DNA of 64,000 nt from Candidatus Microgenomates bacterium (GCA_049519355.1 JBEKQV010000003.1:19646-83645); one strand, 5' to 3'. Positions 9,684 through 36,498 are shown, counted from the first letter of the stretch. Made by a program: numbers and translations. The notes: generated by a model from the sequence alone, not told the origin.

Positions 9684-9802
9684 TTTTGCAAATCTGCCTA
9701 ATAATATTTGCTTCGCGGGAAATAAGCAAGAAAATGATTAATATAGAGATATAATGAGGTGGAAAATTTGCTCTCTCGGCGAGCATGCTAAATTATACAT
9801 AA

Positions 9803-10786: not shown

Positions 10787-10932
10787 AATATTGCGGCATT
10801 TTATGAAAGCGTACAGTTTACAATATGAATAAGAACTTAGGATATTTTACTGCTCTAGCTTTTTTTGACATAAACGGAAAAATTACGGCACGAGGGCTTG
10901 CATTTCAGAAGTTATTAGTTTATCCGTAAGTT

Positions 10933-12799: not shown

Positions 12800-12900
12800 T
12801 GAAATCGGGCGCCGGCTCCATTTTTGATACATCCGTCCGTGTTTGCCCGTAGATTGCATGCGAAATTGATTATATTTATAATGACGGATACCCGCGCGTG

Positions 12901-14004: not shown

Positions 14005-14006
14005 TT

Positions 14007-15395: not shown

Positions 15396-16626
15396 CTGCG
15401 TAGTTTGTTTGACGGTCCCATGGATAAACTTGTTGTAAATTGGCAAGATAAACATTCTTAAGTGGGGTGACAAAAGGAAGGATCTTTCCGGAAAAGTTTA
15501 ATGTGACAACTGGTTGGGCGAACGGAACCTTAAATACCATTTTGTCGATAAGGTTGTCCTTAAAGTGCGGGTTAAGCATATTTAAATACGGCTCATACTC
15601 GTTTAGTAGGTCATCATCCGATAGCGAAAAATAGCGATGAGATGAACTTAGATAATTTCCTATGTATATTAAATGGTGATTATTGTAGTGTGACTTATCT
15701 ACAAAATTCGTATGTTCTACTACTGCTATAAATGGGTATTTTTTTTCGCACACGCTTAGCCAATAAACACCTGATGGGAAAAACGCTTTTTTGAGTTCAA
15801 TTATCATGGTTATTGCGCCAACTCCCTTAACGTCGAGCAGTTTTCGCTTATAGTCTTCAGGTAGTTGAGGAGACATTTTTGTAAAAGGCGCGTTTGGTAA
15901 AGTTATGATTAAACTGTCAAAGGAGTGTTCCCGGCTACTTGTATGTACAAGAACTTTGTTTTTTGGGATGTTAACAACTTTGATAACATTCGTATTATAG
16001 TGAATCAACCCACCCCTATCGATAATTTTTTCTGCTGTTTTGTTCGCTAAATTTTGGAATCCTCCTTCAGGATAGCCGAGACGGGCGGACCGGCTTTTAA
16101 TTCGAGCCCAGAACCAAGCCATGGAGATTTTCTTGGAGTTTTGGCCAAATTTAGAAATAAGGAGAGGCTTCCAAAATAGGTTGTAGGTGTGCCTGCCCAT
16201 CATTCTTGATAACCATTCTTCTGCCGAGACTTTCTCTAACGGCTTCCAGTTTGAAATAGATTTAAGATACCCGATAACAGCACCCATGCGGGATCGTTCA
16301 GATAAAGTTAGCTTCGGGAAACGTAGCAGTTTTAACGGTGAGTCAATTTGGAATATTTCCTTATCAATAAACCAAGATGTGTTGGGTAAAGAAAATGAAA
16401 ATTTTACGTTAACCTCATCGGCGAGTTTTTGTATATCCGTATCACCCGTAAAAATATGGTGGTAATGTTTTTCCAATGGCCAATTCCACCCCGCTTTTTT
16501 AAATCCGGTCGCCAAACCGCCGGGAAAGGATTCCTTTTCCAGTAGCGTAACTTTATGTCCTTTTTTTTGTAATTCTAAGGCTGCGCTGAGGCCGGTAAAA
16601 CCGGTTCCGATTATTCCTACATTCAT
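15358..16626 (-). CDS. FAD/NAD(P)-binding oxidoreductase (amine-oxidase / UDP-galactopyranose-mutase-like fold)
   Basis: N-terminal dinucleotide-binding MNVGIIGTGFTGLSAALEL...VTLLEK..FPGGL. A second in-frame ATG at 16626 avoids overlap with the upstream GT gene. The HHIF segment is loosely like the UGM GPHIFH motif. Confidence 0.55.
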   Translation of the reverse strand: MNVGIIGTGFTGLSAALELQKKGHKVTLLEKESFPGGLATGFKKAGWNWPLEKHYHHIFTGDTDIQKLADEVNVKFSFSLPNTSWFIDKEIFQIDSPLKLLRFPKLTLSERSRMGAVIGYLKSISNWKPLEKVSAEEWLSRMMGRHTYNLFWKPLLISKFGQNSKKISMAWFWARIKSRSARLGYPEGGFQNLANKTAEKIIDRGGLIHYNTNVIKVVNIPKNKVLVHTSSREHSFDSLIITLPNAPFTKMSPQLPEDYKRKLLDVKGVGAITMIIELKKAFFPSGVYWLSVCEKKYPFIAVVEHTNFVDKSHYNNHHLIYIGNYLSSSHRYFSLSDDDLLNEYEPYLNMLNPHFKDNLIDKMVFKVPFAQPVVTLNFSGKILPFVTPLKNVYLANLQQVYPWDRQTNYAVTLGRRVADIYF

Positions 16627-16630
16627 TTTT

Positions 16631-17788
16631 TTATAGTACATCTTTTTTTGGAGAGTTTATTTCCGGATTGCAGTATTTTAGAATCTCCTCGATCTTTCTT
16701 TGCCAGCTATTTTCTATAGCTAACCTTTTTTCTTGATGCTTGTATTTTTCTGGCCAAGGTTTGGATAAAAGATGCTTTATAGTTCTTTCCCAATCTTTGT
16801 AGTTGTTTTCTGTTTTAACGTAGTTGGGAAACTGTTTAAGTTCCTCGATGGGGGTAGAAATAACTGGTTTTCCTAGATAAAAATATTCAAAAAGTTTTGC
16901 AGGATAGCAATATTTATTAAAGTTTTGAGAAATATCATAGGGGATAATTCCGATGTCAAACTGTGAAATTATTTCGGGAATTTCTTCTTTTTTCCAACTT
17001 TCGCCCGCCGTTACATTTATTAGAGAAAGAATTTCTTTAATTTTTGGTTGGACTGTGGTGTCAGACTTGCCCCACTTTTGTATCGGACCCCAAATAACGA
17101 AATTCCATTTGGAATTATGTTTTATAAGTCGAAGTAATAAGTCAAAATTAAGTCTTTTGTTAACGCCTCCAACAAATCCAATAACTGGTTTTTTTAGTTT
17201 AAGGACAGTATGTTTATATTTCTTTTTTGCAAAATCTAAAATTCTAAACCCTTGAGGCACAAGTTTTACATTCTTTCTGAACTTCTGTAAATGGTTTTGA
17301 AGAATATGTGAATTGACAACTACCAAGTCAGCTTTTTTACAAAGCCACTGTTCATCATGCCCTCCAAAAAAATCGACACAATCATATAGAAGGAAATATT
17401 TTTTCCCAAAATATTTATAAATGGGGGAAAGATTTGGATCAAAGATCCAGAAAACTCTTTTTCTGCATTTTCTAAGGATGTAGACAATTTCGGTAAAAAA
17501 CCGCAAGAAAAGTAGGTTAGCGGAAAAATTTAATTTTTCAATAAATTTAAATCTGCGGAATGGGATAAAGTATATTGGGCGGACCAAGTAAATGTTCTTT
17601 GAATATTTACTTGTTTTTTTTGGAAAATCGTGGGCATGAATTTTTTCTTTTAAATATACAGTGTCTCCCCACAAATAACAGACGATAATGTTACCTTTTT
17701 TAGAGAGCTCGAAAGCTGTTTGATTTAAATAGTCTGTCGACCAATTCCAAGAGACATTAAACGGTATTACTATGATATTTTTTCTCAT
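16631..17788 (-). CDS. Glycosyltransferase, GT1/GT4-like (GT-B fold)
   Basis: C-terminal domain IGFVGGVNKRLNFDLL...FVIWGP and the EX7E-like AKLFEYFYLGKPVIST. Confidence 0.5.
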   Translation of the reverse strand: MRKNIIVIPFNVSWNWSTDYLNQTAFELSKKGNIIVCYLWGDTVYLKEKIHAHDFPKKTSKYSKNIYLVRPIYFIPFRRFKFIEKLNFSANLLFLRFFTEIVYILRKCRKRVFWIFDPNLSPIYKYFGKKYFLLYDCVDFFGGHDEQWLCKKADLVVVNSHILQNHLQKFRKNVKLVPQGFRILDFAKKKYKHTVLKLKKPVIGFVGGVNKRLNFDLLLRLIKHNSKWNFVIWGPIQKWGKSDTTVQPKIKEILSLINVTAGESWKKEEIPEIISQFDIGIIPYDISQNFNKYCYPAKLFEYFYLGKPVISTPIEELKQFPNYVKTENNYKDWERTIKHLLSKPWPEKYKHQEKRLAIENSWQRKIEEILKYCNPEINSPKKDVL

Positions 17789-17928
17789 TTTAAAGTTAAG
17801 TTTGCAAATCGTACCACTTTATACAATTAGGTGTAAAGATTTTCAAAATTTTTGGCATTTCAAGAAAACCATGCTTATATAGCATTTATATTGGATTATC
17901 TGTAAAATATAACCGCACAAAAATAGGT

Positions 17929-18081
17929 ATGGTTGAATCGATAAAACAACTTCTTTTATTGGTTAAGAACACAAAGAAAGACTGGTTAATTCCGGTTATT
18001 TTATTTTTTATTATCGTGGCTATGCTTATCATTGCTTCTCAAATTGTGCCAATACCATTCTTTATATATCCAATTGTATGA
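17929..18081 (+). CDS. Tiny membrane protein (50 aa), not in the ORF track
   Basis: ATG at 17929; translation MVESIKQLLLLVKNTKKDWLIPVILFFIIVAMLIIASQIVPIPFFIYPIV with one TM helix. Its stop overlaps the next start (ATGA). Such small ORFs commonly precede carbamoyltransferase genes. Confidence 0.4.
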   Translation: MVESIKQLLLLVKNTKKDWLIPVILFFIIVAMLIIASQIVPIPFFIYPIV

Positions 18082-18263
18082 AAAGATTAATCACAGCCAT
18101 AAATACTTTTATGATTCAAGTTATTTTGTTCTTCGTATATTTTGTAGCCATTGGAATCGCAGCCGCACTTTATAGACTACAGAAAGCAAGTTCAAAGAAT
18201 CACGGTTTATGGAATAAGAAAAATTTCCCAGCAAATCGAGATTATTTCCTGTCTCCTTATTGA
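18078..18263 (+). CDS. Small membrane protein (61 aa)
   Basis: One TM helix (VILFFVYFVAIGIAAALY). Translationally coupled between the 50-aa ORF and the carbamoyltransferase (stop at 18263, next ATG at 18265). Confidence 0.4.
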   Translation: MKRLITAINTFMIQVILFFVYFVAIGIAAALYRLQKASSKNHGLWNKKNFPANRDYFLSPY

Positions 18264-18264
18264 T

Positions 18265-19950
18265 ATGTATATTCTTGGAATCTCCGCGTTTTATCATGAT
18301 AGTGCAGCATCCTTACTAAAAGATGGAGTGGTAATAACTGCAGTAGAAGAGGAGAGGTTTACAAGAATTAAACATGACAATTCTTTTCCATACAAAGCCA
18401 TTGAATATTGTCTTGTTAGTAATAATCTATCTATTAAGGATATTAATTATGTGGCTTATTATGAAAAACCACTTTTGAAATTTGAGAGGATTTTGGAAAC
18501 TTTTGTTGAAACCTATCCTTTTTCATTATATCCGTTTATAAAAGCTATACCGGAATGGTTGGGTGAAAAGATAAAGGTTGGTGCAATTATAAAGAAGAAA
18601 CTTGGATATAAAGGTGAAATATATTATATTCCCCATCATTTATCTCACGCTTCTGCAGCATTCTTTACCTCTCCTTTCAAGAGAGCGGCGATATTAACTG
18701 TGGACGGGGTTGGAGATGTATCAACCACGGATATGTGGATGGGGGAGTTAGGTAAAATAACAAATGTTGGCGAAATTTTCTTCCCAAACTCTTTAGGACT
18801 TTTTTACTCTACATTAACTGCCTTTTTGGGTTTTAGAGTAAATAGTGATGAATACAAAGTGATGGGTCTCGGTGCTTACGGTAATCCTACCTATAAACAA
18901 AAACTAGCACGATTGATTAAAATTAATGACGATGGCAGTTTCGAATTAGATTTAAGCTATTTTGCATTTCGGGAATCTTTTCGGATGTGGAGCAGAAAAT
19001 TTGAATCAGAATTTGGAAGCCATCGAAATCCGGGGGAACCAATAACTCAGCGACATAAGGATATGGCTGCCAGTTTACAAGTAGTTACTGAGGACGTTTA
19101 TTTTGGAATTCTCAATAATTTGTATAAAAAAACGCATATCAAAAACTTATGTATAAGTGGAGGTGTTGCATTAAACTCTCTTGCAAACGGGAAGATTTAT
19201 AAAAATACTAAATTTAGAAATATTTACGATTTTGGACCCGCCGGGGACAGTGGAACTTCTCTTGGCGCGGCACTCTTTTTATATACAAGTGTTTTGAAAC
19301 ATCCAAGACCAAAAGCTGTCAAAACGCTTTGCTTAGGATCCGAATATGCCGAGAGTTATATAGAGCATGTTTTGGAAAAAAATGGTCTGAAGTATGAGAA
19401 AATTGACAACCAAAAGATGTTAATTGACAAAGTTGCGCATAACCTTAAAAAGAACGACGTAATCGGATGGTTTCAAGGAAGAATGGAGTTTGGCCCGAGG
19501 GCTTTAGGATCCCGATCCATTTTAGCAAACCCGAAATCTGCAGGCATGAAGGATGTTGTTAATAAAATTAAGAAACGCGAAAGCTTCCGTCCATTTGCGG
19601 CATCAGTGCTTCAGGAGAAAGTTCAAGAACTCTTTGATGTACCAGAAAAGAACCACAAGTCACCCTATATGAACTTTTGTTTTGAGGTAAAAGATGAAGC
19701 AAAAAGAAATATTGCGGCAATAGTTCATGAAGATGGTACATGCAGGATCCAAACGGTTTGTGAGGATAACGGCTTGTTTTATAAGTTAATAAAGCGATTC
19801 TATTTTCTAACTGGCATACCCTGCCTTTTAAATACAAGCTTTAATTTATCCGTTGAACCGATCGTTGAGAAACCGGAGCAGGCAATATATGATTTTACTA
19901 ATAGTTCTTTGGATGTGTTGGTGATAGGTAATTTTATTGTTACAAAGTGA
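18265..19950 (+). CDS. Carbamoyltransferase (NodU/CmcH/NovN family)
   Basis: N-terminal ILGISAFYHDSAASLLKDGVVITAVEEERFTRIKHD is the canonical Carbam_trans_N signature. ATG at 18265 (MYILGIS) rather than the upstream in-frame extension. Confidence 0.85.
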   Translation: MYILGISAFYHDSAASLLKDGVVITAVEEERFTRIKHDNSFPYKAIEYCLVSNNLSIKDINYVAYYEKPLLKFERILETFVETYPFSLYPFIKAIPEWLGEKIKVGAIIKKKLGYKGEIYYIPHHLSHASAAFFTSPFKRAAILTVDGVGDVSTTDMWMGELGKITNVGEIFFPNSLGLFYSTLTAFLGFRVNSDEYKVMGLGAYGNPTYKQKLARLIKINDDGSFELDLSYFAFRESFRMWSRKFESEFGSHRNPGEPITQRHKDMAASLQVVTEDVYFGILNNLYKKTHIKNLCISGGVALNSLANGKIYKNTKFRNIYDFGPAGDSGTSLGAALFLYTSVLKHPRPKAVKTLCLGSEYAESYIEHVLEKNGLKYEKIDNQKMLIDKVAHNLKKNDVIGWFQGRMEFGPRALGSRSILANPKSAGMKDVVNKIKKRESFRPFAASVLQEKVQELFDVPEKNHKSPYMNFCFEVKDEAKRNIAAIVHEDGTCRIQTVCEDNGLFYKLIKRFYFLTGIPCLLNTSFNLSVEPIVEKPEQAIYDFTNSSLDVLVIGNFIVTK

Positions 19951-19951
19951 T

Positions 19952-20947
19952 ATGAAATTAAACCGCAAAAAACTTGTAGGTATAATTACCGTCATTGAGA
20001 TTTTGGCGATTATAGGAATAGGCTTTTACATGTATAAACGGTGGGAGGCTGCAAAGTATGTTTTAAGTAAGGTGGTAGTTACGCCGATATCTAAAAACGT
20101 CCTACTTGATGAACCGACCTCTGAACTCAAATACTTTTATGAGTTGACGCCAAATAACAGTTGGAGCGATGAACCTTCGTGGTTGGGTTATAAAGCAGTA
20201 TATACGATTAATACAGATACGTTGAATGAACGTTACGATTATCAGTTGAAAAAACAGGACGGTGTTTTCCGGATTATAACTCTTGGAGACTCTTTTACTT
20301 TTGGGCAATATGTGAGTACGGCTGATAACTGGTCGGAGGTATTGGAAGACAGTTTAAACAGGTTGAACTGTAAAGGGATAAAAAAGTTTGAAGTAATTAA
20401 TTTAGGAGTACCAGGTTATGATGTTGAGTATATTGCACAAAGGTATGCAATAAGAGGGGAGAAGTATAACCCCGATTTAATTATTTGGCTCGAATCTGGC
20501 TCTGGTTTCAATCGGATTAATGAACTCCGTGTTCCCTATGAGCAGAAAATCGCCCAGACATTGACGCAACAGGAAATAGCTAACGCGCAAAAGCAGGGTG
20601 ATTACTGGTTAGCTTGGACTAAGGCAGATGGGGAAGTGTTTAAAAATTATACTGGTAGTCAGATAGCGGAAATTATTGGTAGGGCATGGCAAAAATTCTT
20701 TCTGTCGCGTGGAGATACGAAGGTTTTGGTTGCCACATTCCCCTACGTTACTACCGAACAACTGAAACAGTTGAATTTTTGGTTTCAGGGTCAGAAGAAT
20801 GTGTCAATATTTAACGATTTGCCCGATGTCCGTCTGTCAAATTTGCACGTAGCCGATGGCCATCCGAGTATAGAGGGTCATCAAATGATAGCGGAGAGCA
20901 TTCTAAATTACCTGAAGAATAGTTCTATTATTTCCTGCTCACCTTAA
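19952..20947 (+). CDS. SGNH/GDSL-family hydrolase, membrane anchored
   Basis: N-terminal TM helix, block I ITLGDSFTFG (GDS) and C-terminal DGHPSIEGH (DxxH catalytic dyad). The ORF-track start is TTG; the ATG is at 19952. Confidence 0.55.
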   Translation: MKLNRKKLVGIITVIEILAIIGIGFYMYKRWEAAKYVLSKVVVTPISKNVLLDEPTSELKYFYELTPNNSWSDEPSWLGYKAVYTINTDTLNERYDYQLKKQDGVFRIITLGDSFTFGQYVSTADNWSEVLEDSLNRLNCKGIKKFEVINLGVPGYDVEYIAQRYAIRGEKYNPDLIIWLESGSGFNRINELRVPYEQKIAQTLTQQEIANAQKQGDYWLAWTKADGEVFKNYTGSQIAEIIGRAWQKFFLSRGDTKVLVATFPYVTTEQLKQLNFWFQGQKNVSIFNDLPDVRLSNLHVADGHPSIEGHQMIAESILNYLKNSSIISCSP

Positions 20948-20951
20948 ATTT

Positions 20952-23900
20952 TTAATCAAGCTTAAATGATACATCAGTTGTAAAAGATGGGGATGTGACA
21001 TTGCATCTTATTGCCGGGCATTCTTCTGTCTTAATGATATTCCCGGTTGATGGATTAAACCACTGTATTTCTCCCTCACTTTTTGTGGATATTGTTAAAG
21101 TAAACGTTGTAGGGGTAAACGGGCTAGAATAGTGATAAAAATACCCCGCATTAATACTGTCTGAAATTAGTCCGTATCCTCTTACTCCAAATTTATCGAG
21201 TGCATATTGAACACTTTTTGAATCTAATGGAAATGATTGTGAGAAATTTTGGAGTATGCGGGTATATGACCGCTCTACATCTCCTAAATAAATATTTGCG
21301 TTTAAATTTTCCCCCACTTTTATGTTGGTGGAGTCGGATTGATTCCAAAACATAAGTATGCCTTGTTGAAAGAAAGCTGTCCATGCACGAATTCGCATAC
21401 GATCTGCAGACGTTTGATCGTCGTTGGATTGGTAATTGCCCTGCTCTGCAAAGACCACTGGCTTTGGATAATTTTCGAATTGTTGAATGTGCTGGACAGT
21501 CGTTAAATCGGACTGCGATATGTTTTCGGTTTCATACCAGTGTGGGGCGATAATGTCCGAATCTCCGTAGTTATAAGGTTCTGAGCTTATGCTTATTGGT
21601 CTGTTTTCATAGTCAAGTGACCTTATTTCATCGGTAAGAAGCGTTGAAGTTGAGTCGGGGACGATAACCTCGTTAGCCAATTCCCAAATGTCAACATATG
21701 CGCCATATCTTGCAAAAACATAACGTATGTAAGACGTAAGTAAATATTGGGTGGCGGGATCTTGTGAACCTTTGAAGGGTATATCAAATCCAAAAAGGGT
21801 TAACCATACGTGGATATCATTATTTCTTAAAGATTCGACAAGGGTATCTCCGATTTTACCCTGAAGAATTGAATATTCAGTTGGAAAACCGAATTCATTC
21901 CAAAGTCCCATAGATGAGTTCAGCAAACTCCAACGAAACATGTTGAACCCCGCGCCGGCCGGGCCGTATGCGGAAATGTAATCATTCAAAGAGTTAATTT
22001 TGTCGCTTCTAAAAGAATTTGTGTAGCCGAATCCGTTTGGATTGGCGAGTGGAGTGCTGTTTCCGATTGCCCAATCGTCTAGTGGGGTACCGTCGTAATT
22101 GAAATCAATCATCGTATCTCCTATGCCCAATCCGTTAAATATGGTTTTACCATCAGTTGTCAAACGTTTAGGATTTGTAAGATTTGTACGTAGGTAGAAA
22201 TTTGAGGTATCAGTTGTTGATGTCAATTCACCGGTTTTTGTTAAGGTTTTACCATGAGGCACCCAAATTATTTTCCACGTCCATTTTCCTTTAAGTGGAG
22301 GGTTGAAGCGGACTTTCCATATATTTTGATCGTAATAAAATCCCGGTATTTCAACCACTCTTCCTGATTCATGAGTAAATACTGCTGTTAAGTCCGCCTC
22401 CCGCCACGGATTTACAAAAGTTCCACTCGATTTTAACGTCAACTCAAAAACGTTAACACTTGCAATTTTTGTGAATGATTGGGAAACTTCAAATTGCTGA
22501 TCACCGGAAGTTAAATCCGGTAAGCCGGTATTATCATTGATCTTGTAAATTACGCCATCGGAAGTGGCAAAAAATATGTATTTGCCGCTTAGATACGGGT
22601 CTATGTTAGAACTTGTAGGGGCATTTGCAGAAAATTCCCAAGATGTTTTCCCTGTACCCCCGTTTATATAAAAAAGATCACCAGACTGATTGCTTACAAA
22701 ATAATCTGGTGTAAACGGGTTTAACCACCCAGGTATAAGTCCCGCTAACACGGGTTTAATAAGTGCTGGGCTATTAACAAAACCCAGGCTTGGTACTTCT
22801 GCTGATTTTTTCCCGGATGCAAGGGATAATGTGATAGCTTTTCCGTCTTGACTTGTCAGCATCGCTTTGGATTTCCAGAATGAGGGATAATTTAAACCTT
22901 GTCCGAGCTCGTCTGACTGCCAGATAATTGCTCCAGTTTTACCGTCTCTTCTAACAACCGTTCCGTCTTCATGCACCTCAAAATATGCAATTGGTCCTAT
23001 TGAAAACCAATTGTGAATATAGTTGTTTATATTGGCTAGGTATTGCAATATCGGGTTATCAGAGGTTGAGAAAGATGACATTACTGTTGTGGATGAAATC
23101 GGGGATCCGCTTGTAACTTCCCAGAGGATTTTACCGGTATATTTATCAAGGGCTATAGATTTGTTGGAATTTGTGGCTATAAAAAGATATTTGCCGTAAA
23201 GTTCAGGGCCGTTGGTCATAAGGTCACCAATATCGGTTTTCCATAAAATCTTGCCTGTATTTAGGCGAAGCGCATAAAGTGTTTTATCGCGGCTGGCAAC
23301 GTAAACAGTATTGTTTGCTACAGTTAAATCGCCGAAGTAATATATTCCCCAACCGTTAATTACGGAAGAGAGGGTATATAAAGGTTTTGGGGTAAATTTC
23401 CATAAGAGTTTTCCGTCGCTTAGTCTCAGAGCGCTTAATGAGCCGTCTTCGCTTGCAGCAAGGACGTAGTTTTTATAGATTGTAGCTTTTTGAAAAAAGT
23501 ACTGATTGTCTGTCGAAACCTGCCAAATCACTTTTTGATTTCCAATATTTATAAGCCAGACCTTATCGTCAGAAATTGCCAGGATGTTATTTCCGGATAT
23601 TGCTTGTGGTGTTACATTACCGTTTAGATCAAGAATTTGTGTTTTTCCTTGTATTGAGGTATTCGTGAAGTATAGTTTTTTATCATTCGTTCCAAAAATT
23701 AAAGTGTTATCCTTTTTAAACAGCTGACCTTGTATTTCACCATCAGCGACGAACGAGGACCATGTGTTTGAAGATCTTTCATGTATAAATAAAAATATAC
23801 CAAATAGGAGTAGACAAAATCCAAGAAGTGCAAGTATTTTATTATTGTACCTTTTGAAAAAGGTTGAGGTTTTGCGAGGCTTAGACATAAGGGTATTATA

Positions 23901-24974
23901 AACTGACAAGGTTTGCGTTGCCATTCTTTTCCAACTGAATTCTTTAGCTCTTTTTTTACCTCTGGTTATAAGTTTATTTCTTAAGGGTTGATCTGTGGTA
24001 ATTTTTAACATAGCGCTAAAGATTTCGCGGGTTGATGTGGGATTTATCAAGATGGCGGCGTTGCCAGCGACCTCTTTCGTGGCGCCATAGTTTGAAGTAA
24101 TGACGGGACAACCGCAATTCATTGCTTCCAAGATAGGAAGACCAAATCCTTCGTAAAGAGAGGGGTATAAAAAGCAAGTGGCTGATTGATACATTTTTTT
24201 TAATTCATTATCGTTGGGAGCTATTATTATTTTTATCCAATCAGATATTGAATAAATTTTAGCTTGTCGCAGAAAGTGCGCTGCCTCTTTTTTCGTTGAG
24301 ACTATTACTTTCAGTTTCTGTTTGTTTTTAAAATCTGGTGGAAATTGTGAATATGCGGAAAAAATGGTTTTTAAATTTTTTCTGGGAGAAAAATCGCCCA
24401 TGCATAAAAAGTACTTATTTTGAATTGCTTTACTTCCGGTGTCTGTAAAAATAGGGGAGACTGCTTCATGTATGACCCGTATATTTTTTCGCATTTTCCA
24501 TTTGCTTAGATATTTTTTCAAATCGCCCAGTGTATTTTTAGAAACAGAGATAAGAACTTTCGAATTTCGGAATAGAAAATATCTTGTTAACTCCGAATAA
24601 TATCTTTGTAGAAAATATTTAATACTTCTAAATGTAGGGTACACGGTTCCCAAATCCAGGTCATGTACCGTGGTAACTGTGTTTGGATATTTCCACAAAA
24701 TTGAGCCATATGGTTCGGTGTTGTGAAACACGTCTACCATTTCTTTTCGTACAGCAATCGGTAAAAAGAACTGACGTTTTAGTATTGGGAAATTTGGTAT
24801 CTTTACAGTTCTGAAATTCTTTTGATCGGGAATAACTATATTTTTTGATGCAAAAAGAATATATGTATTTATTTTATCTATAGAGGCGAGACCGTTTATA
24901 AGTTCTTCTACATAGCGTTTTGTCCCATGTTGATAAGGTCTTGTTAAAGCGTTTACATCTATACCTATTTTCAT
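20952..24974 (-). CDS. Multidomain 1340-aa protein: N-terminal GT4 glycosyltransferase, TM helix, PQQ-like beta-propeller repeats, C-terminal GH-A (GH5-like/DUF4038-like) glycoside hydrolase fold
   Basis: GT4 E-X7-E region YEGFGLPILEAMNCGCPVITS. Hydrophobic helix ILALLGFCLLLFGIFLFI. Repeated GK(I/L)LW(K/E) propeller blades. GH-A acid/base-like VDIWELANEV and nucleophile-like VVFAEQG motifs. Confidence 0.7.
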   Translation of the reverse strand: MKIGIDVNALTRPYQHGTKRYVEELINGLASIDKINTYILFASKNIVIPDQKNFRTVKIPNFPILKRQFFLPIAVRKEMVDVFHNTEPYGSILWKYPNTVTTVHDLDLGTVYPTFRSIKYFLQRYYSELTRYFLFRNSKVLISVSKNTLGDLKKYLSKWKMRKNIRVIHEAVSPIFTDTGSKAIQNKYFLCMGDFSPRKNLKTIFSAYSQFPPDFKNKQKLKVIVSTKKEAAHFLRQAKIYSISDWIKIIIAPNDNELKKMYQSATCFLYPSLYEGFGLPILEAMNCGCPVITSNYGATKEVAGNAAILINPTSTREIFSAMLKITTDQPLRNKLITRGKKRAKEFSWKRMATQTLSVYNTLMSKPRKTSTFFKRYNNKILALLGFCLLLFGIFLFIHERSSNTWSSFVADGEIQGQLFKKDNTLIFGTNDKKLYFTNTSIQGKTQILDLNGNVTPQAISGNNILAISDDKVWLINIGNQKVIWQVSTDNQYFFQKATIYKNYVLAASEDGSLSALRLSDGKLLWKFTPKPLYTLSSVINGWGIYYFGDLTVANNTVYVASRDKTLYALRLNTGKILWKTDIGDLMTNGPELYGKYLFIATNSNKSIALDKYTGKILWEVTSGSPISSTTVMSSFSTSDNPILQYLANINNYIHNWFSIGPIAYFEVHEDGTVVRRDGKTGAIIWQSDELGQGLNYPSFWKSKAMLTSQDGKAITLSLASGKKSAEVPSLGFVNSPALIKPVLAGLIPGWLNPFTPDYFVSNQSGDLFYINGGTGKTSWEFSANAPTSSNIDPYLSGKYIFFATSDGVIYKINDNTGLPDLTSGDQQFEVSQSFTKIASVNVFELTLKSSGTFVNPWREADLTAVFTHESGRVVEIPGFYYDQNIWKVRFNPPLKGKWTWKIIWVPHGKTLTKTGELTSTTDTSNFYLRTNLTNPKRLTTDGKTIFNGLGIGDTMIDFNYDGTPLDDWAIGNSTPLANPNGFGYTNSFRSDKINSLNDYISAYGPAGAGFNMFRWSLLNSSMGLWNEFGFPTEYSILQGKIGDTLVESLRNNDIHVWLTLFGFDIPFKGSQDPATQYLLTSYIRYVFARYGAYVDIWELANEVIVPDSTSTLLTDEIRSLDYENRPISISSEPYNYGDSDIIAPHWYETENISQSDLTTVQHIQQFENYPKPVVFAEQGNYQSNDDQTSADRMRIRAWTAFFQQGILMFWNQSDSTNIKVGENLNANIYLGDVERSYTRILQNFSQSFPLDSKSVQYALDKFGVRGYGLISDSINAGYFYHYSSPFTPTTFTLTISTKSEGEIQWFNPSTGNIIKTEECPAIRCNVTSPSFTTDVSFKLD

Positions 24975-26128
24975 AAATAAATATTCTTTATAACTTTTCC
25001 GAAAGAAGCTAAAGCCTGGGCTTCGGAAAATCTTTTAGCGAGTTTAATGGATCTCTTTCCCAATACTTTTCTGTTATTGGTCGGCATACTAAAAAATGTA
25101 TTTAGCTTAAGTAGGATTTCCTCCGGGGAATCGTTTTTAAGAATAAGGGTGCTGTCTAGTTTGCCGAGTAATTCCTTAAGATTTCCTACGGGTGTCCCAA
25201 TTACGGGAGTTCCTGAAGCAAGCGATTCTAAAACGACAAGCGGCGAATTTTCCAACTTTGACGGAAGTACTAATACATCTGAGTTTTTGTAGTATTGAAT
25301 TAAGTTGTGCTTCGGTGGATCTTTTTTAATTCTTGTGTTTTTTTTGACTCCAAGATGTTTGATTAGGGAAATCATCTTTCTTTCCATCCCCGGTTCGGCA
25401 CTTGAGGAAGGGTACACTACAAAGAGTAGAGCTTTTGAGTTTGTCTGAATAAATTTAGCGAAAGCTTTGATTAAATTGAGTACACCCTTATATTCAAACA
25501 GTCTTCCGGCATATAGAATTACGTGACGGCCCACCGGTACTTTGTTATTCCTGGAATAAAAACAATTGGTTACTATATTCTGAACTATATATATTTTTTT
25601 AGGATTTAGCAGTGGGTTATTGGTCAAAAGATATTGCTTTGCGTATAAGGACGGGACGATGACGGCATTTGAAAATGACCATGAGAATTTTTCAAAAAGT
25701 TTTGTAAAAATTTGTCGATAGTTATATTTTTGTATTCCGAGATCGGACACACTTCTTGTTCCGTGGAATGTAAATATCACCTTTGCATGTTTTCCTGAAA
25801 CGCTTATTGCCGACAACGCCGTTAGGTAATCGGCGCTCATAATAAAATTAATATTGTTTTGTTTAAGCGTTTGCTTTATTTGTTTTCGAACTTCTAAAAA
25901 ATTGTTGACGTTGTTTGGAAGAAAAGTAAACCTACCTTTTGAGTTAATTTTTTTTAGAAACGATTTTTCTCTGAAAAGCTTGAGATCCGGTTTAAATTTT
26001 TTCTTAAAGGCAATTAGATAAAAGTTGGATCCTGGGTTAGCTGCTTTAAATGCCTCATAAAGTCTTGTTAATGCCACCCATTCACCTCCTTCAGTCAGCT
26101 CGGCTAGAACAAGAAAATTATATTTCAT
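24971..26128 (-). CDS. GT4 glycosyltransferase (GT-B)
   Basis: PSKLENSPLVVLESLASGTPVIGTPVGNLKEL E-X7-E motif and typical N-terminal GT4 domain. Confidence 0.8.
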   Translation of the reverse strand: MKYNFLVLAELTEGGEWVALTRLYEAFKAANPGSNFYLIAFKKKFKPDLKLFREKSFLKKINSKGRFTFLPNNVNNFLEVRKQIKQTLKQNNINFIMSADYLTALSAISVSGKHAKVIFTFHGTRSVSDLGIQKYNYRQIFTKLFEKFSWSFSNAVIVPSLYAKQYLLTNNPLLNPKKIYIVQNIVTNCFYSRNNKVPVGRHVILYAGRLFEYKGVLNLIKAFAKFIQTNSKALLFVVYPSSSAEPGMERKMISLIKHLGVKKNTRIKKDPPKHNLIQYYKNSDVLVLPSKLENSPLVVLESLASGTPVIGTPVGNLKELLGKLDSTLILKNDSPEEILLKLNTFFSMPTNNRKVLGKRSIKLAKRFSEAQALASFGKVIKNIYL

Positions 26129-26152
26129 TGCGATATAATGCCCCTAGCATAA

Positions 26153-27676
26153 ATGAAGTCGGCAATTTTAACAAGTTTAAAAAGGCGAATTCTATCAAGT
26201 TCTGAAAACTATATTTTATTTGTTTTTTTTCTTGCGGACCTAACTTTTCTTATAAAAATTGTTGGCGGAAATGCATGGGTGACTATTTTTTTCTTTCTTC
26301 TTCTTATTGTATTGATTTGGATAAAAATACGTGACTGGGCGCTTAGTTCGTTACTTGTTACAATTTTCTCTTTTCAATTTTATCTACCGAATAAATATTA
26401 TCCCATTGAGGTTTTTAGACCATATGAACTGCAGCCGGGTTTTGGACCTTATTTTTTGAGTTACGGCATAAATTTGGAAAATATTTTTTTGTTAATTACG
26501 CTAATCCTGATTATCAGGAATCTAATTTTAAAAAAGTCGGTTTTTCCAAAAAAAAGTATAACTTACATTTTACCGGCGATATTTTCCGCGATATTGTTTT
26601 TTCTTATTTCTCTTTATTCCTCTCTTAGATTTTCGCCATATTCAAGTTTGTCAGTAACATGGCTTTTACAGGACATACAGTTGTTTTTAGTTGGTTTTTC
26701 GGTATTTTATGTATTTTTTAAAAAACGCAGTGATTTAAAATTGATTTCTCCTGTAATTCTTTCATCCATAGTTCTTCAATCAGCCGTTTCGATTATCCAA
26801 TTTGTAAAACAATCTTGGGCGGGTTTACCTATTGAGAGCTTTATTGTTGAAACGATTTATTACGGGTCTCCTGATGCTGTGCATTCGTATTTTCGTGTTG
26901 CCGGAACATTCGGACATCCGAATCAATTGGCATTAATTCTTTGCGCAATGCTTGTTTTAATTCTCCCGCAAGTTATAGGAGAGAGAAAACCTGTTTATAT
27001 ATTGGGGTCATTTATTACCGTTTTGGTAATTCTTTTGACCCAAAGCCGTTCGGGGTGGTTGGCTCTTTTTGTGGTTATTCTTCTTACGACAATCATTTAT
27101 AGAAATGAATTGTTAAAACCCGTTTCCAAACTGGCGATTAGACGAATAGCTGTCTCGATTACACTTGTGATTGCGGTGACGCTTGCGGTTGCTGTTCCCC
27201 GGATTGTTGCAAGTTTTAACGCGTTTTATCAAAATGCCGGTTTTCCTCTAAGAATTGAAATGGCTAAAGAAGCAATCTTGGCAATAGCTCAAAACCCTTG
27301 GCTGGGGTATGGGATGGGTACCAATGAACCGGTTTTGTTCAGGTTATTTCCAATGGGTTACATTTATTCATTTCCAGCACCCATTCATATGGCATATTTA
27401 CAAATGATTTTGGAGAGTGGTATTCTTGGATTTCTTTTCTTTATGTTTCCTTTTGTTTATATAATCAGGTGTATAATCAACCGGTTCTTGTTATACGGAG
27501 CTAAAAAAATAGCAAGGGCCAAAAATTATATTTTTATTACACTCGCGGGGATTTCAGCTTTTGGTTCTTTTTATCTTTTCCTCCCATATGAGGGATTCAG
27601 GGAGTTTGCATATCTGGGGATAATATTCGGTTATGGTATGATATGTCTCCAGCCATTTAAAGCTTTTCCAAAATGA
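26153..27676 (+). CDS. O-antigen ligase / Wzy-like polytopic membrane protein
   Basis: About 12 TM helices and the Wzy_C-type motif LTQSRSGWLALFVVILL in a periplasmic loop. Confidence 0.55.
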   Translation: MKSAILTSLKRRILSSSENYILFVFFLADLTFLIKIVGGNAWVTIFFFLLLIVLIWIKIRDWALSSLLVTIFSFQFYLPNKYYPIEVFRPYELQPGFGPYFLSYGINLENIFLLITLILIIRNLILKKSVFPKKSITYILPAIFSAILFFLISLYSSLRFSPYSSLSVTWLLQDIQLFLVGFSVFYVFFKKRSDLKLISPVILSSIVLQSAVSIIQFVKQSWAGLPIESFIVETIYYGSPDAVHSYFRVAGTFGHPNQLALILCAMLVLILPQVIGERKPVYILGSFITVLVILLTQSRSGWLALFVVILLTTIIYRNELLKPVSKLAIRRIAVSITLVIAVTLAVAVPRIVASFNAFYQNAGFPLRIEMAKEAILAIAQNPWLGYGMGTNEPVLFRLFPMGYIYSFPAPIHMAYLQMILESGILGFLFFMFPFVYIIRCIINRFLLYGAKKIARAKNYIFITLAGISAFGSFYLFLPYEGFREFAYLGIIFGYGMICLQPFKAFPK

Positions 27677-28506
27677 AACACATAACTATCTTTAAGAGAA
27701 AAGTGACGTATTTTGATTTTATTTTGGGAGGCGTATTTATAATAGTAATGCTTGGGGTTTTCCTGTTTTTATATAGAAAAAACGAATACGTAAATATCCG
27801 TGTAAAAGTAACGGATCAGGATGTTCTTTACGCATCTACCGATCCAAAAAGCTGGTATGCTAACCGATTTGAAGTGGGGGATATTGAATTGGACGAACTT
27901 GGGAGGACGATAAGCCAGATAACCGGCGTTGAAACTTTTAATATGAGTCCGGATACAAAAGCTGTTTATCTGGACATTAAGATTAAAGCGGTTTATGACA
28001 GACGTACAAAATTGTATTCGGCGCGGGGAATCAATCTAACTTTTGGAAACACGATCAGATTTAATTTTTCTAACGCCTCTTTTTATGCATTGATTACAGA
28101 ATCGCCTGGCACATTAAATCAAAAAGATCTAACGGTTGAGGAAAAGGAAATAACCGTTTTGGAACGGGGGCCTGCTTTAAACTCTTCAGCCGATTCGATT
28201 GAACCCGAAGTTTTGGAAAAGATTAAAAAGGGAGATGAGATTACCGATTCAAACGGAGATACCTTGGCGGAGGTCGAAAACGTGGTCCTTAGGCCCGGCC
28301 AACGGGTTGTACAAAACGCTGCTGGAAACCTTCTTCTCAGATATGACCCTTACTACAAGGATGCAATAATTACACTTAAAATACGGGTTGAAAAATATAA
28401 AGGAGATGAATTTGTTTTTGATAATGTTCCTTTAAAGCTCGGTTCCTATTTACCGTTAAATTTCACTTATGAAAGTATCTGGCCTGTTATAACGGATATT
28501 AAATAA
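27673..28506 (+). CDS. Hypothetical membrane-anchored protein
   Basis: N-terminal TM helix, no recognisable catalytic motifs. Embedded in the GT locus and start-stop coupled to the preceding gene. Confidence 0.3.
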   Translation: MKHITIFKRKVTYFDFILGGVFIIVMLGVFLFLYRKNEYVNIRVKVTDQDVLYASTDPKSWYANRFEVGDIELDELGRTISQITGVETFNMSPDTKAVYLDIKIKAVYDRRTKLYSARGINLTFGNTIRFNFSNASFYALITESPGTLNQKDLTVEEKEITVLERGPALNSSADSIEPEVLEKIKKGDEITDSNGDTLAEVENVVLRPGQRVVQNAAGNLLLRYDPYYKDAIITLKIRVEKYKGDEFVFDNVPLKLGSYLPLNFTYESIWPVITDIK

Positions 28507-29637
28507 CTCTTCCAGAATTTTAATATACTTTGTGAGGATTTTTTCTTGGAGAAAGTCGGCCGCCCTAATTTTTGCCATGTTAGAGTAATGTTTGCGCTTC
28601 GTTCCGTCGCTTAGAAGTTTAACAATCGCTTCAGCTAGGGCGTTAGAGTTGCCGACGGGGACTAAGATACCGTATTTATTCTTGCCAATAATTTCAGAGG
28701 GCCCGTAATTGCAGTTTGAAGCAACTACCGGGATTCCTCCTGCCATTGCTTCCAAGATAGAAAGGGGAAGTCCTTCCCATTTTGTTGAAAGAACAAAAAC
28801 TTTTGAGCTGTCCAGTAGTTTTGTCGGATTTTGCACCCAACCGAAAAACTTAACTCTCTGGGATATACCGAGTTTTTCGGCTAGGGACTTTAACTGATTT
28901 TTTAAAGGACCATCCCCAACTAACCACAATTCCGAATTGGGTATTTTATTTGCAACAATTTTAAACGCCCTAAGAAGCGTCACGTGGTCTTTTTGCACAT
29001 CCAATCTGGCTGTTGAAATAACAATTTCTTTCCCGCGGGTTTCAACTGCCGTTCTCTTTTCAAAGTAGCGTGCAGGTAATATTTCTCCGATTGAGGTAGG
29101 GATTTTCCTCAATTTTAAGTCTCTGGAAAGGTCGCGCGACATTTTTTTTGCGACTGTCACAACAGCATCTGACTTATTCAGAAAAAGTGCCAAAGAATAT
29201 TTTACGGGTTTGCGTAAGTACTTACCCAGTCTGATGTTTATCACCTTTGTCAGGTTGTTGTGGATAACACTTATTGTTTTATATTTGAGATTGAACAGAG
29301 ACCTAACTGCTTCTGAAATTAGGATTGAATGCGGGTCTGAAGAAAGTACAATATCTGGCTTAAAATTTTGAACCGCTTTCTTGAACCACATTCCTTCTCT
29401 GATAAACATCTGTATATTTTTCCGGTTAAGACTGTATTTATCGGGAATTTCCCGTTTTTGTGAGAAAAACGAATATTCTCGGATATTGATAGTTCTAAAT
29501 AAGGGTTTTTCCAGAACAAGGACCTTCATAATTAGTTGACCCGGCTTAAACATTTTCTTTAGACCAAGGAGGCCTTCCGCATACGTTCCGGTTCCTCCGT
29601 CAACACTTCTTTGAAGAACTAATAGTTTTAACTTCAT
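28456..29637 (-). CDS. GT4 glycosyltransferase (GT-B)
   Basis: WEGLPLSILEAMAGGIPVVASNCNYGPSEII E-X7-E motif. Confidence 0.8.
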   Translation of the reverse strand: MKLKLLVLQRSVDGGTGTYAEGLLGLKKMFKPGQLIMKVLVLEKPLFRTINIREYSFFSQKREIPDKYSLNRKNIQMFIREGMWFKKAVQNFKPDIVLSSDPHSILISEAVRSLFNLKYKTISVIHNNLTKVINIRLGKYLRKPVKYSLALFLNKSDAVVTVAKKMSRDLSRDLKLRKIPTSIGEILPARYFEKRTAVETRGKEIVISTARLDVQKDHVTLLRAFKIVANKIPNSELWLVGDGPLKNQLKSLAEKLGISQRVKFFGWVQNPTKLLDSSKVFVLSTKWEGLPLSILEAMAGGIPVVASNCNYGPSEIIGKNKYGILVPVGNSNALAEAIVKLLSDGTKRKHYSNMAKIRAADFLQEKILTKYIKILEELFNIRYNRPDTFISEI

Positions 29638-30308
29638 TGACGGATTATATAATGTCCTTCCACTTCACTGTGTAAGTAACCGACCGGCTTGGGAATATTA
29701 AGTCTAATACTGTCGTTGCGGTATGCTTCACACAAAATATTTGCCCAGCCCTTGGTGAATTTCAGACAGTAATTCATTTCGCGGCTTACATCATCCGATT
29801 TGCCGACAGAAAAATAATAATTAATAAGCTCTGCATGAAACTCAGGGAATTCGGGATTATTATAGATGGCCTTGCTAAGTAGAGTAGGGGTTAACTCAGG
29901 GTGACCATTATTGTATGCGATTAAGGCTAAATTGTAATAAATTCGGCCCAGTCCCTGATCTTCGTTGTTTTTTAGATCACTGGCAGTAAGGCTCCCGAGA
30001 TAGTTTGTAAAAAGAATTTTAAGACTGTCATCGTTGGGAATTGTGAGGGCTTTGTCAAAATCTGCTGGAAGAAGATTACGGTATGGATCATATTCTCCAT
30101 ATATATTTATCCGCGATGCCAAAGACAACTCAGTCATTGCCTTTTCGAAGTTTCCGTTTTTGGCGTCGGATATTGTGTTTTCGATAAAATATTTATTTAA
30201 GAATATTGAGCTTTGTGAAGCGGGATCCGATAAATAATTGACGATTTCGGACACAAAAAAAAGGAGGGTAATACCCAGGATAATAAGGAATATTTTCATT
30301 TTAGTCAT
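29634..30308 (-). CDS. Hypothetical signal-anchored protein with helical (TPR-like) repeats
   Basis: N-terminal TM/signal MKIFLIILGITLLFFV. The rest is helical-repeat-like with no catalytic motif. Confidence 0.3.
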   Translation of the reverse strand: MTKMKIFLIILGITLLFFVSEIVNYLSDPASQSSIFLNKYFIENTISDAKNGNFEKAMTELSLASRINIYGEYDPYRNLLPADFDKALTIPNDDSLKILFTNYLGSLTASDLKNNEDQGLGRIYYNLALIAYNNGHPELTPTLLSKAIYNNPEFPEFHAELINYYFSVGKSDDVSREMNYCLKFTKGWANILCEAYRNDSIRLNIPKPVGYLHSEVEGHYIIRQ

Positions 30309-30333
30309 TCCAGCTATACTATACTTTAGTTAA

Positions 30334-31395
30334 ATGAGAATCCAATCGCGAATACATCCTTGGGACCACTTCTTTCTTGTCAGCACATTCATAATTTTAA
30401 TATTAATTGGAATCGGAATCGATACAAGTTTTATTTTGGTCCTGGTATTATTGAATGTTTTGGCTGCCCTTATTTATAAATATATAAATATTGGGAAAAT
30501 AGAAATTCCCAAAAACTACTTTCTTTACGTGATCTTTTTGTTGGTTTTGCTGGTTCATACTCGGCTTTTCCATGGCAATATCCTTTTTCTCCAGCTTTTG
30601 TCTATAGGCGGCTTATTGTGGCTTGAGGTTTATAATTTCAGAAGATTATTTGCGAAATATTTTGCTCCGATATTAATTACTCTGGGAATGCTGATGAGCG
30701 GAATATATATTTATTCTCTTAGATTTCCGGTAAATTTGCCCAATTTGTTGGCTTTATTCAAAGCGCCTCCAGATTTAGCCAGGCATGTTGTTATCGGTGA
30801 TCTCTGGGCCGTAATTTTGGTGGCAGTTTTTTATTTATTTTTTAGAAAGAAATCGTATTTTTACTTACCCCTTATTGGTTTGGGGCTGTACTTCCTGGCA
30901 ATTTCATATTCCCGCTCGGCGCTTCTTGCACTCGCTGTCGGGATTTTCTATATTTTTCAAAAGTCGGTAAACCGGAAAAAACTTAAGAATATAATTTTGG
31001 TTTTGTTTGTTATTATTACGGCTCTTTTTGTTTATTTCGCTACTGTAAAAAGTCTTTTGTTCTCACGCGTATACTTTTTTCAGGCAATAATCGGATTTTT
31101 CCGTTTTCCACTTGGAACGGGGATTGGTAACTTTACTTATTTGACCAACTTGGCGGATTTGGTGCATGATTTACCCCTCGAGGTATTTTCGGGGATGGGA
31201 ATTTTTTCGGTGGTTTTTCTGGTCTGGCTTTACAAGATTTTGAAGCAAATGTTAACGGTTAAGAAAATTAACGTAGAAGCGGTAGCTATATTTCTGGCGA
31301 TTTTAATTGATTTTTGTTTTTATACAACCTATACGATCCCTATATTTATCGGGATATGGTTCCTAAGTCTGGCGCTTACAGAAAATACCACCTAG
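30334..31395 (+). CDS. Second O-antigen ligase / Wzy-like polytopic membrane protein
   Basis: Multiple TM helices and ISYSRSALLALAVGIFY, similar to the Wzy_C motif in 26153..27676. Confidence 0.5.
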   Translation: MRIQSRIHPWDHFFLVSTFIILILIGIGIDTSFILVLVLLNVLAALIYKYINIGKIEIPKNYFLYVIFLLVLLVHTRLFHGNILFLQLLSIGGLLWLEVYNFRRLFAKYFAPILITLGMLMSGIYIYSLRFPVNLPNLLALFKAPPDLARHVVIGDLWAVILVAVFYLFFRKKSYFYLPLIGLGLYFLAISYSRSALLALAVGIFYIFQKSVNRKKLKNIILVLFVIITALFVYFATVKSLLFSRVYFFQAIIGFFRFPLGTGIGNFTYLTNLADLVHDLPLEVFSGMGIFSVVFLVWLYKILKQMLTVKKINVEAVAIFLAILIDFCFYTTYTIPIFIGIWFLSLALTENTT

Positions 31396-31404
31396 AGTGG
31401 GGGA

Positions 31405-31971: not shown

Positions 31972-32056
31972 AACTTCCTACTAATAATATAGCACAACCA
32001 CATCTTTTTCTACCCAGCTTGCGCTACGTGCTTTAGGTTTGTATTATAAGAGTATA

Positions 32057-33439: not shown

Positions 33440-33472
33440 AAATTTGCTTCAAAAAGTGCTAATATTTAGCTG

Positions 33473-36455: not shown

Positions 36456-36489
36456 TCCACCAGTATAGTCTATTTTGCAGCCAAAATTC

Positions 36490-36498
36490 TGATATAAT
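36490..36498 (+). promoter_or_regulatory. Extended -10 promoter element (TGaTATAAT) 8 nt upstream of the yebC ATG; possible leaderless transcript
   Basis: tgatataat at 36490..36498, ATG at 36507, and no SD sequence in between. Confidence 0.35.

Follow-up and report, generated by a model that had tools for sequence, protein, structure and literature searches.

Many polysaccharide-secretion operons encode a glycoside hydrolase, and the synthetic role of that hydrolase is debated. A stretch of 64,000 nucleotides from Candidatus Microgenomates (GCA_049519355.1 JBEKQV010000003.1:19646-83645; this whole stretch is referred to here as the window, and positions are counted from its first letter) poses the question in a pointed form, as a single open reading frame (ORF) within it joins a family GT4 glycosyltransferase to a glycoside hydrolase in one polypeptide, apparently with the membrane between them. 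Is such a protein real, and if so, what might its two enzymes do together? In this work we find the architecture to be a genuine natural gene fusion, situated in a surface-glycan biosynthesis operon of Candidatus Microgenomates (Patescibacteria). The corresponding NCBI entry (MGA2910860.1, from a Candidatus Microgenomates metagenome-assembled genome, MAG) is named only 'glycosyltransferase', and NCBIfam agrees with the Pfam domain calls for the protein and returns no equivalog-level match.

From the N to the C terminus the protein comprises six parts (Table 1): a GT4 domain, a transmembrane (TM) helix, a PQQ/BamB-like beta-propeller, a DUF5060 beta-sandwich, a GH5-like barrel and a C-terminal beta-sandwich. 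An initial annotation, made from the sequence alone, had proposed a single ORF uniting a GT4 domain, a membrane helix, a PQQ-type propeller and a clan GH-A type hydrolase. The frame is indeed free of internal stops, the domain identities are supported by Pfam, NCBIfam, PDB sequence matches and Foldseek, and the motifs quoted there are all present (EX7E; WELANE, residues 1097-1102; FAEQGN, residues 1175-1180); the main modules of that list therefore stand, while the two beta-sandwiches on either side of the barrel had been missed. For the glycosyltransferase, both halves of the GT-B fold score above the curated Pfam thresholds (Glyco_transf_4 at residues 17-172, 30.1 bits against a cutoff of 28.5; Glycos_transf_1 at residues 185-342, E 1.7e-28 and 99.8 bits against a cutoff of 26.4), and its sequence relatives in the PDB are MshA, PimA, BshA and GlgA. 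EX7E is a recognized motif of GT4 enzymes. In its Pfam and PDB matches, its two-domain GT-B layout and its intact EX7E motif the domain resembles membrane-acting GT4 enzymes of the PimA, MshA, BshA and WbaZ type; those enzymes, however, are soluble or peripheral, whereas the GT4 domain described here would be tethered by a C-terminal TM helix, beyond which follows an ectodomain of 940 residues.

An ORF of this kind could also be the product of sequencing or assembly, in which a frameshift or a chimera has joined two separate genes, and the initial annotation had named split orthologues as the sign by which such an artefact would be recognized. That sign is half present. Among the matches listed, the closest relatives of the ectodomain are unfused proteins of 966-968 residues with an N-terminal signal anchor (P0302 and P0303, 59% identity; P0003, 53%), which is what an artefact would predict. 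Yet the identical 1340-residue protein occurs on 15 contigs of up to 846 kb; the four of these that are shown derive from three independent sources of assemblies (JGI, ENA and Logan), and each, when translated, gives the query. Furthermore, the fusion is conserved in two diverged orthologues with the full architecture (P0001, 1342 residues, 52% identity; P0002, 1313 residues, 47%), the junction is in frame and has no linker, and analogous fusions to glycosyltransferases of families GT26 and GT2 exist. We consider an artefact scarcely credible, and the independent assemblies together with P0001 and P0002 exclude it for practical purposes.

The split relatives are instructive as to how the fusion may have arisen. 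On the contigs that carry P0003 (locus L005) a free-standing GT4 gene, 55% identical to residues 1-365 of the window protein, lies 115 nt upstream of the ectodomain gene; on the contig that carries P0302 (L091) the GT4 orthologue (43% identity) lies one gene farther upstream, and the SGNH and carbamoyltransferase genes downstream match those of the window. The free GT4 proteins end at the equivalent of residue ~365, the first residue of the unfused ecto-proteins corresponds to Met363, and these proteins share the basic stretch and signal anchor that follow it; as such the fusion is essentially without a linker. In other Patescibacteria (L011, L012, L069) a GT4 gene abuts or overlaps the propeller-hydrolase gene. 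The simplest origin, as read from these sequences, would be the loss of a stop codon between two abutting genes. Such a fusion would be tolerated because, when a cytoplasmic protein is joined to the front of a signal-anchored, N-in one, neither part ends up on the wrong side of the membrane. As two separate genes encode these parts in the closest relatives (53-59% identity), the event appears to be a lineage-specific fusion of neighbors.

It is not the only one of its kind. An exhaustive HMMER search with residues 367-1340 as the query gave 249 cluster representatives at E<1e-30, many of them proteins of ~900-1000 residues with a TM helix, a propeller and the glycoside hydrolase (GH) module, and the GH module itself has 180 confirmed matches among GTDB species representatives. 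Amongst the retrieved family members, 122 carry the GH module only and 50 the propeller and the module. Two, plus the window protein, add a GT4 domain to these; two more (P0161 and P0180) add a GT26 domain (WecG/TagA), and another two (P0169 and P0209, the propeller of the latter detected by Pfam) a GT2 domain, and the GT26 and GT2 fusions lie in clusters comparable to that of the window. Neighbor joining was applied to 24 aligned ectodomains (953 columns, 100 bootstraps). In the resulting tree the window protein clusters with two unfused proteins, P0302 and P0303 (bootstrap 100), while the fused P0001 and P0002 group with each other (100) and with the unfused P0003 and P0159 (84); the GT26 and GT2 fusions are scattered. 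The GT4 fusions are thus not monophyletic in the ectodomain tree and, because fused forms group with different unfused ones, fusion to GT4 has occurred at least twice, or else once with subsequent fissions. A hydrolase has apparently been welded to a glycosyltransferase across the membrane several times, with three glycosyltransferase families as partners. Such recurrence amounts to 'Rosetta-stone' evidence for the hydrolase as a stoichiometric component of an assembly machine, and the fusion of the same outer module to two other glycosyltransferase families argues that the two sides of the window protein work on one surface glycan.

Two further arrangements were encountered in this survey. 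One relative of the GH module, P0154 (844 residues), also bears an annotated UbiA prenyltransferase domain (PF01040), and this would represent another fusion of the module to a membrane enzyme. On a Gottesmanbacteria contig (contig_74641; L094, also L013) the GT26-fused P0180 and an unfused propeller-DUF5060 paralogue (8001..11441 and 17228..19441) lie ~6 kb apart, in a locus that also holds two Wzy_C genes and an RGP gene.

The nature of the outer catalytic domain was less readily assigned, as the Pfam scan of the 1340-residue protein gave no significant match over residues 900-1340. Of the profiles that the initial annotation had named for a check, Glycos_transf_1 and PQQ_2 matched, but Cellulase (PF00150) gave no match to the window protein at E<=1, and neither did PF13204 (Apiosidase-like, formerly DUF4038); with only sub-threshold PF13204 matches in some relatives, membership in family GH140 was rejected. 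DUF5060 itself is found at residues 841-902 (E 1.5e-16, 60.8 bits against a cutoff of 27.2). An AlphaFold2 (AF2) model of the C-terminal module, built from an alignment of 40 relatives of residues 835-1340 (predicted local distance difference test score, pLDDT, 92.1; predicted template modelling score, pTM, 0.92), shows a beta-sandwich, a (beta/alpha)8 barrel and a C-terminal beta-sandwich. The top Foldseek match in the PDB is ManDH5, the GH5 beta-mannanase of Dictyoglomus thermophilum (9gmj, 9gpa, 9gpc, 9gpe; E 2e-26, template modelling score 0.71-0.73, ~15% identity), followed by the uncharacterized BVU_0362 (4n0r, 3e-20), with generic TIM-barrel glycosidases far below. A profile of the family likewise matches ManDH5 (E 2.6e-29 overall, i-E 6.2e-10 for the catalytic region alone), 4n0r (1.6e-16) and the GH5 mannanase 3ziz (E 1.5e-5). 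ManDH5 has the same trio of DUF5060, (beta/alpha)8 barrel and C-terminal sandwich; it differs in being a soluble degradative enzyme of 568 residues that has no TM helix, propeller or glycosyltransferase. BVU_0362 and the GH140/DUF4038 proteins similarly have DUF5060 followed by a clan GH-A barrel, though the window protein is set apart from GH140 by the missing PF13204 match, and 4n0r is itself uncharacterized.

Members of family GH5 share eight conserved residues (R, H, N, E, H, Y, E and W). Seven of these fall on the expected strands of the model, namely R1014 on beta-2, N1101 and E1102 on beta-4, H1145 and Y1147 (as H-x-Y) on beta-6, E1177 on beta-7 and W1210 on beta-8; the conserved His after beta-3 was not seen. 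In the alignment to ManDH5 the counterpart of E1102 is E303, which entry 9gpc carries as the substitution E303Q, and that of E1177 is the glutamate of the GEFG motif; this bears out the catalytic signatures that had been picked out from the sequence. In an alignment of 64 relatives reaching down to 24% identity, N1101, E1102, H1145, E1177 and W1210 are conserved in all 64 and Y1147 in 63. From sequence and model together, the domain is best described as a GH5-like member of clan GH-A, short of a formal CAZy or subfamily placement; we use the label 'GH5-like' because there is similarity to GH5 in sequence and fold but no match to Pfam Cellulase or GH140. The conservation also bears upon the idea that the domain is a non-catalytic, glycan-binding pseudo-enzyme and that the ecto-region merely anchors or senses the polymer. 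With the predicted acid/base, the predicted nucleophile and the nearby GH5 hallmarks retained in 63-64 of 64 relatives, we regard this as very improbable. The residues named here are concrete candidates for mutation.

Between the membrane and the hydrolase lies the propeller, for which the evidence begins with a strong PQQ_2 match in four stretches (E 3.1e-31, 109.3 bits against a cutoff of 27.6) and five recognizable motifs of the form G(x)1-3-hydrophobic-hydrophobic-W (residues 478, 521, 574, 614 and 681). An AF2 model of the whole ectodomain (residues 367-1340, 64-sequence alignment, pLDDT 94.0, pTM 0.90) gives the propeller 36 strands and one helical insertion, and with the propeller and the (beta/alpha)8 barrel both present in confident models the folds anticipated in the initial annotation are confirmed at the level of prediction. 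It had counted about six blades; the model suggests more. The best Foldseek superpositions are to Cake9 and Cake10 (TMt 0.87, root mean square deviation ~3 A), ahead of BamB (TMt 0.62-0.71), Cake being a designed nine-fold propeller (bioRxiv 10.1101/2021.04.12.439409). Given the 36 strands and the best fit to nine-bladed Cake9, the number of blades is probably about nine, a figure drawn from secondary structure, pTM and best superpositions. A natural nine-bladed propeller, if such it proves, would be of an uncommon blade number. The kinship to BamB and other PQQ_2 propellers is one of sequence family and of propeller fold; TIGR03300 (BamB) is matched well under its cutoff (E 8.9e-26, 90 bits against 285), and with Cake9 fitting better than BamB the domain does not appear to be an eight-bladed BamB equivalent. 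Moreover, BamB is a lipoprotein of the outer-membrane protein-insertion machine, whereas the propeller of the window protein has a TM helix on one side of it and a glycanase on the other. The Microgenomates group is generally regarded as monoderm.

The arrangement about the membrane follows from a single feature. There is exactly one hydrophobic segment in the 1340 residues (Kyte-Doolittle 2.7 over its core), much where the initial annotation had placed a helix (residues ~380-400), and AF2 models a helix over residues 372-400. Its N-terminal flank holds six K/R and no D/E, its C-terminal flank one K/R and two D/E. By the positive-inside rule, and with one TM helix only, the GT4 domain would be inside and everything beyond residue ~400 outside, in agreement with the earlier proposal of synthesis within and binding and hydrolysis without. 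Just upstream of the Met363 codon (23886..23888, reverse strand), within the GT4 coding region, are sigma-70-like hexamers (23924..23895, reverse strand). Promoter and terminator scans around the gene found no more sites than in shuffled sequence, and promoter-like sites were fewer than in shuffled sequence; as shuffled sequence yields at least as many, this promoter-like site does not argue for an internal transcript. Met363 is not preceded by an evident Shine-Dalgarno sequence.

The setting of the gene speaks most directly to function. A glycan cluster takes up approximately 28 kb of the window and contains, besides the fusion gene, Bac_transf, RGP, an ABC-2 permease and ATPase, methyltransferases, a DegT aminotransferase, a PMT-like GT-C glycosyltransferase, a carbamoyltransferase, an SGNH protein, Wzy_C, DUF4330 and four further GT4-type genes. 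The ATGA overlap of stop and start codons (Table 1) argues that the upstream GT4 gene and the fusion gene belong to one operon. Wzy_C and, after it, DUF4330 also accompany the propeller-hydrolase gene in two distant gammaproteobacterial MAGs (L024, 2042..4452; L030, 2040..4398), where the pair comes directly before it, which suggests a conserved functional trio. Orthologues (37-55% identity) of the GT-B-like protein encoded at 16631..17788 adjoin the propeller-hydrolase gene in five loci (L005, L009, L010, L091 and L092), and by this comparison its product is a likely conserved third partner. Many cluster genes are common to the split loci; the core genes within 2889..6060 have orthologues in the split loci L005 and L092, where the Bac_transf and RGP pair is kept at 55-69% identity. 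RGP (the reversibly glycosylated polypeptide/UDP-arabinopyranose-mutase type) is a family familiar mainly from plants, and is unusual in a bacterial glycan cluster.

Table 1. Features of the fusion gene and its neighbors in the window (aa, amino acids).
Feature	Residues or size	Coordinates	Strand	Basis or remark
Whole fusion ORF	1340 aa	20952..24974	-	Stop codon included, ATG start, uninterrupted
Cytoplasmic (predicted) GT4 domain, GT-B, retaining-type	aa 1-362	23889..24974	-	Pfam, PDB relatives
EX7E motif, E275-GFGLPIL-E283	aa 275-283	24126..24152	-	Read from sequence; C-terminal Rossmann domain
Junction: Met363, basic stretch MSKPRKTSTFFKRYNNK, TM helix core ILALLGFCLLLFGIFLFI	Core aa 380-397	23784..23888	-	Hydropathy, flanking charges
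Extracytoplasmic (predicted) PQQ_2/BamB-like beta-propeller	aa ~407-813; helical insertion aa ~634-653	22536..23756	-	Pfam, AF2, Foldseek
DUF5060 beta-sandwich	aa ~828-919	22218..22493	-	Pfam; alignment to ManDH5 N-terminal domain; models
GH5-like (beta/alpha)8 barrel, clan GH-A (predicted)	aa ~944-1244	21243..22145	-	AF2, Foldseek, family profile
Predicted acid/base Glu, N1101-E1102, end of beta-4	aa 1101-1102	21669..21674	-	ManDH5 alignment, conservation, model
Predicted nucleophile, E1177, beta-7, in FAEQGN	aa 1177	21444..21446	-	ManDH5 alignment, conservation, model
C-terminal beta-sandwich	aa ~1249-1340	20955..21230	-	Models; weak Collagen_bind_2 match, E 0.032
Upstream GT4 gene	385 aa	24971..26128	-	Stop overlaps fusion start codon (ATGA)
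Wzy_C (O-antigen ligase/polymerase family), then DUF4330	507 aa; 277 aa	26153..28506	+	
Protein with weak GT-B-like (Glyco_trans_1_4) matches	385 aa	16631..17788	-	
Bac_transf phosphoglycosyl transferase		2889..3515	-	
RGP		3521..4531	-	
ABC-2 permease and ATPase		4523..6060	+	

To place this setting in the wider family, neighboring ORFs within 5 kb were surveyed at 14 propeller-bearing loci (105 ORFs) and 15 module-only loci (105 ORFs). The propeller-bearing forms are accompanied by GT4-type (19-20), GT2 (10) and Wzy_C (8) genes, as well as ABC transporter, GDSL, epimerase and DUF4330 genes. The module-only forms, from Chloroflexota, Acidobacteriota, Planctomycetota and others, have three GT4-type and two GT2 neighbors, no Wzy_C among the matches listed, and 158 mixed families. 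This contrast argues that it is the propeller-bearing subfamily specifically that is tied to glycan biosynthesis. It also weighs upon a rather different view of the outer module, namely that it is a glycanase for nutrient scavenging or for attack upon the cell wall of a host or partner, and that its attachment to a glycosyltransferase is a neutral accident of adjacency. Microgenomates-type bacteria are thought to be epibionts. The sole characterized relative is a degradative mannanase, some module-only copies in Bacteroidota bear secretion tails (PF18962) and have a gene context that is not biosynthetic, and the nearest relatives of the window protein are unfused, all of which would sit comfortably with such a role. 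Against it, propeller-bearing forms are found consistently inside glycan-biosynthesis clusters, the module has been fused, apparently several times, to three unrelated glycosyltransferase families, and no sugar-uptake or catabolic genes were seen beside the fusion gene, either in the glycan cluster of the window or in the neighbor survey. We therefore hold the scavenging role to be unlikely.

Taken with the architecture, these observations lead us to prefer, with confidence only slightly better than even, a biosynthetic and membrane-tethered glycan-processing enzyme that is covalently coupled to a glycosyltransferase. The cytoplasmic GT4 domain, held at the membrane by the TM helix, would use a nucleotide sugar to attach an alpha-linked sugar residue to a membrane-bound glycan, itself probably linked to polyprenyl phosphate, begun by the Bac_transf enzyme of the cluster and lengthened by its other GT4 enzymes. 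The glycan would then be exported, probably via the ABC-2 transporter of the cluster, and handled outside by the Wzy_C protein. On that side the propeller may serve as a platform that binds the glycan or docks partner proteins, and the DUF5060 and GH5-like unit, as a retaining glycanase with its Glu/Glu pair intact, may cut, trim or transfer a beta-type linkage of the exported glycan. Other polysaccharide machines have PslG, BcsZ or plant KORRIGAN in such a role; the processing enzyme would here be tied covalently to a glycosyltransferase of the pathway. We infer from the gene context that the enzyme acts upon the cell's own polymer; the choice between hydrolysis and transfer, the ligand of the propeller and the route of export are likewise proposals, and are worded here as such.

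The choice between hydrolysis and transfer deserves further comment, as the GH5-like domain might be mainly a transglycosylase that moves the exported chain to another glycan, wall or S-layer acceptor, in which case the protein would be synthetic at either end. Transglycosylation is within the reach of retaining glycoside hydrolases, as the GH16 and GH72 enzymes of fungal walls and plant XTH show. The retaining Glu/Glu machinery is intact, the module is closely linked to Wzy_C and DUF4330, and it has been fused repeatedly to glycosyltransferases; on the other hand, the characterized relative is a hydrolase, and no feature of sequence or structure that we examined separates transfer from hydrolysis. 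We consider transfer as the principal activity improbable. A related and broader proposal is that the TM/propeller/DUF5060-GH5-like unit is a dedicated and hitherto unrecognized extracytoplasmic component of surface-glycan assembly in Patescibacteria, acting with Wzy_C, DUF4330 and an ABC-2 exporter, and that its GH5-like part is a transglycosylase or chain-release enzyme that serves assembly, which requires it, and not degradation. We offer this as a tentative and rather doubtful suggestion; were it true, the repeated fusion to GT4, GT26 and GT2 would mean that the unit forms one trans-membrane complex with those glycosyltransferases.

Several points weigh against the reading we prefer, that of a tethered biosynthetic enzyme coupled to its glycosyltransferase. 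The two domains act on different glycan bonds and are no make/break pair for one bond, because GT4 enzymes produce alpha-linkages and the target of GH5 and clan GH-A enzymes is beta-type linkages; of the synthesis/processing pair that was initially envisaged, the inside/outside arrangement survives. The nearest relatives work as separate proteins and, as such, covalent coupling is not required; the fusion could be a neutral by-product of adjacency and compatible topology. The only characterized relative, ManDH5, is ~15% identical and is a free degradative mannanase. The N-in/C-out topology is predicted from hydropathy and the positive-inside rule only, a narrow basis, and the tree is a neighbor-joining one from a single alignment. 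Last, a start at Met363 could in principle also yield a stand-alone ecto-protein from the same gene.

Hydrolases that work with polymer-making machinery are well represented elsewhere, amongst them BcsZ (GH8) and KORRIGAN (GH9), and PslG (GH39, of the Pseudomonas Psl system) belongs, as the GH5-like domain would, to clan GH-A. Production of Psl requires both the activity of PslG and its association with the membrane (PMC6813494). The window protein displays the features of this functional class, in that it lies among glycan-biosynthesis genes and has, by prediction only, a membrane anchor with an outer catalytic domain. PslG, BcsZ, the hydrolase domains of PelA and PgaB, and KORRIGAN are all encoded or at work with polymer synthesis machinery, as the window protein appears to be, and PslG and KORRIGAN also have an N-terminal membrane helix with the catalytic domain outside. 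They belong to other GH families, however, and have neither a propeller nor a covalently attached cytoplasmic glycosyltransferase, so that the analogy is one of function only. The likeness to PelA and PgaB that had been drawn initially holds in this functional sense; structurally it is poor, as these are not GH5-like barrels, and the membrane-anchored, clan GH-A enzyme PslG is the closer parallel.

The individual parts (GT4, PQQ_2 propeller, DUF5060 and GH5-like barrel) are already known, as is the functional class of membrane-tethered biosynthetic glycan hydrolases. Our searches of the literature brought up no account of the family or of the architecture, in keeping with the earlier remark that the combination was not a recognized one; undescribed in the literature found are the union of hydrolase and glycosyltransferase through one TM helix, the interposed and probably nine-bladed propeller, and the recurrence with GT4, GT26 and GT2. 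The association gives a context, Microgenomates surface-glycan assembly, to a sizeable uncharacterized family of DUF5060 and GH5-like proteins. Practical impact is moderate, the organisms being uncultured; the architecture and its recurrence are nonetheless informative as to how polysaccharide machines are organized.

A number of minor observations were made in the window and the related loci. The glycan cluster (4001..32000) has a guanine plus cytosine (G+C) content of ~34-40%, against ~40-47% in the housekeeping region that follows (32001..62000, with gyrA and dnaB), and lower G+C is a frequent trait of variable surface-polysaccharide loci. Two large ORFs (466 and 730 residues; 32039..35665, forward strand) directly after the cluster have no Pfam match at E<=1e-4, and neither tRNA genes nor Rfam elements were found in the 64-kb window. 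A QueC-like gene lies within the glycan cluster (9803..10786, forward strand) and in the related loci L005 (9267..10720) and L092 (5546..6926), and in related loci it adjoins a small PqqD-like gene. Finally, a DUF5989 ORF of 50 residues (~17929..18081, forward strand; 16894..17046 in L001) lies a short way upstream of the carbamoyltransferase gene, and each of the four assemblies shown has it among its called genes.

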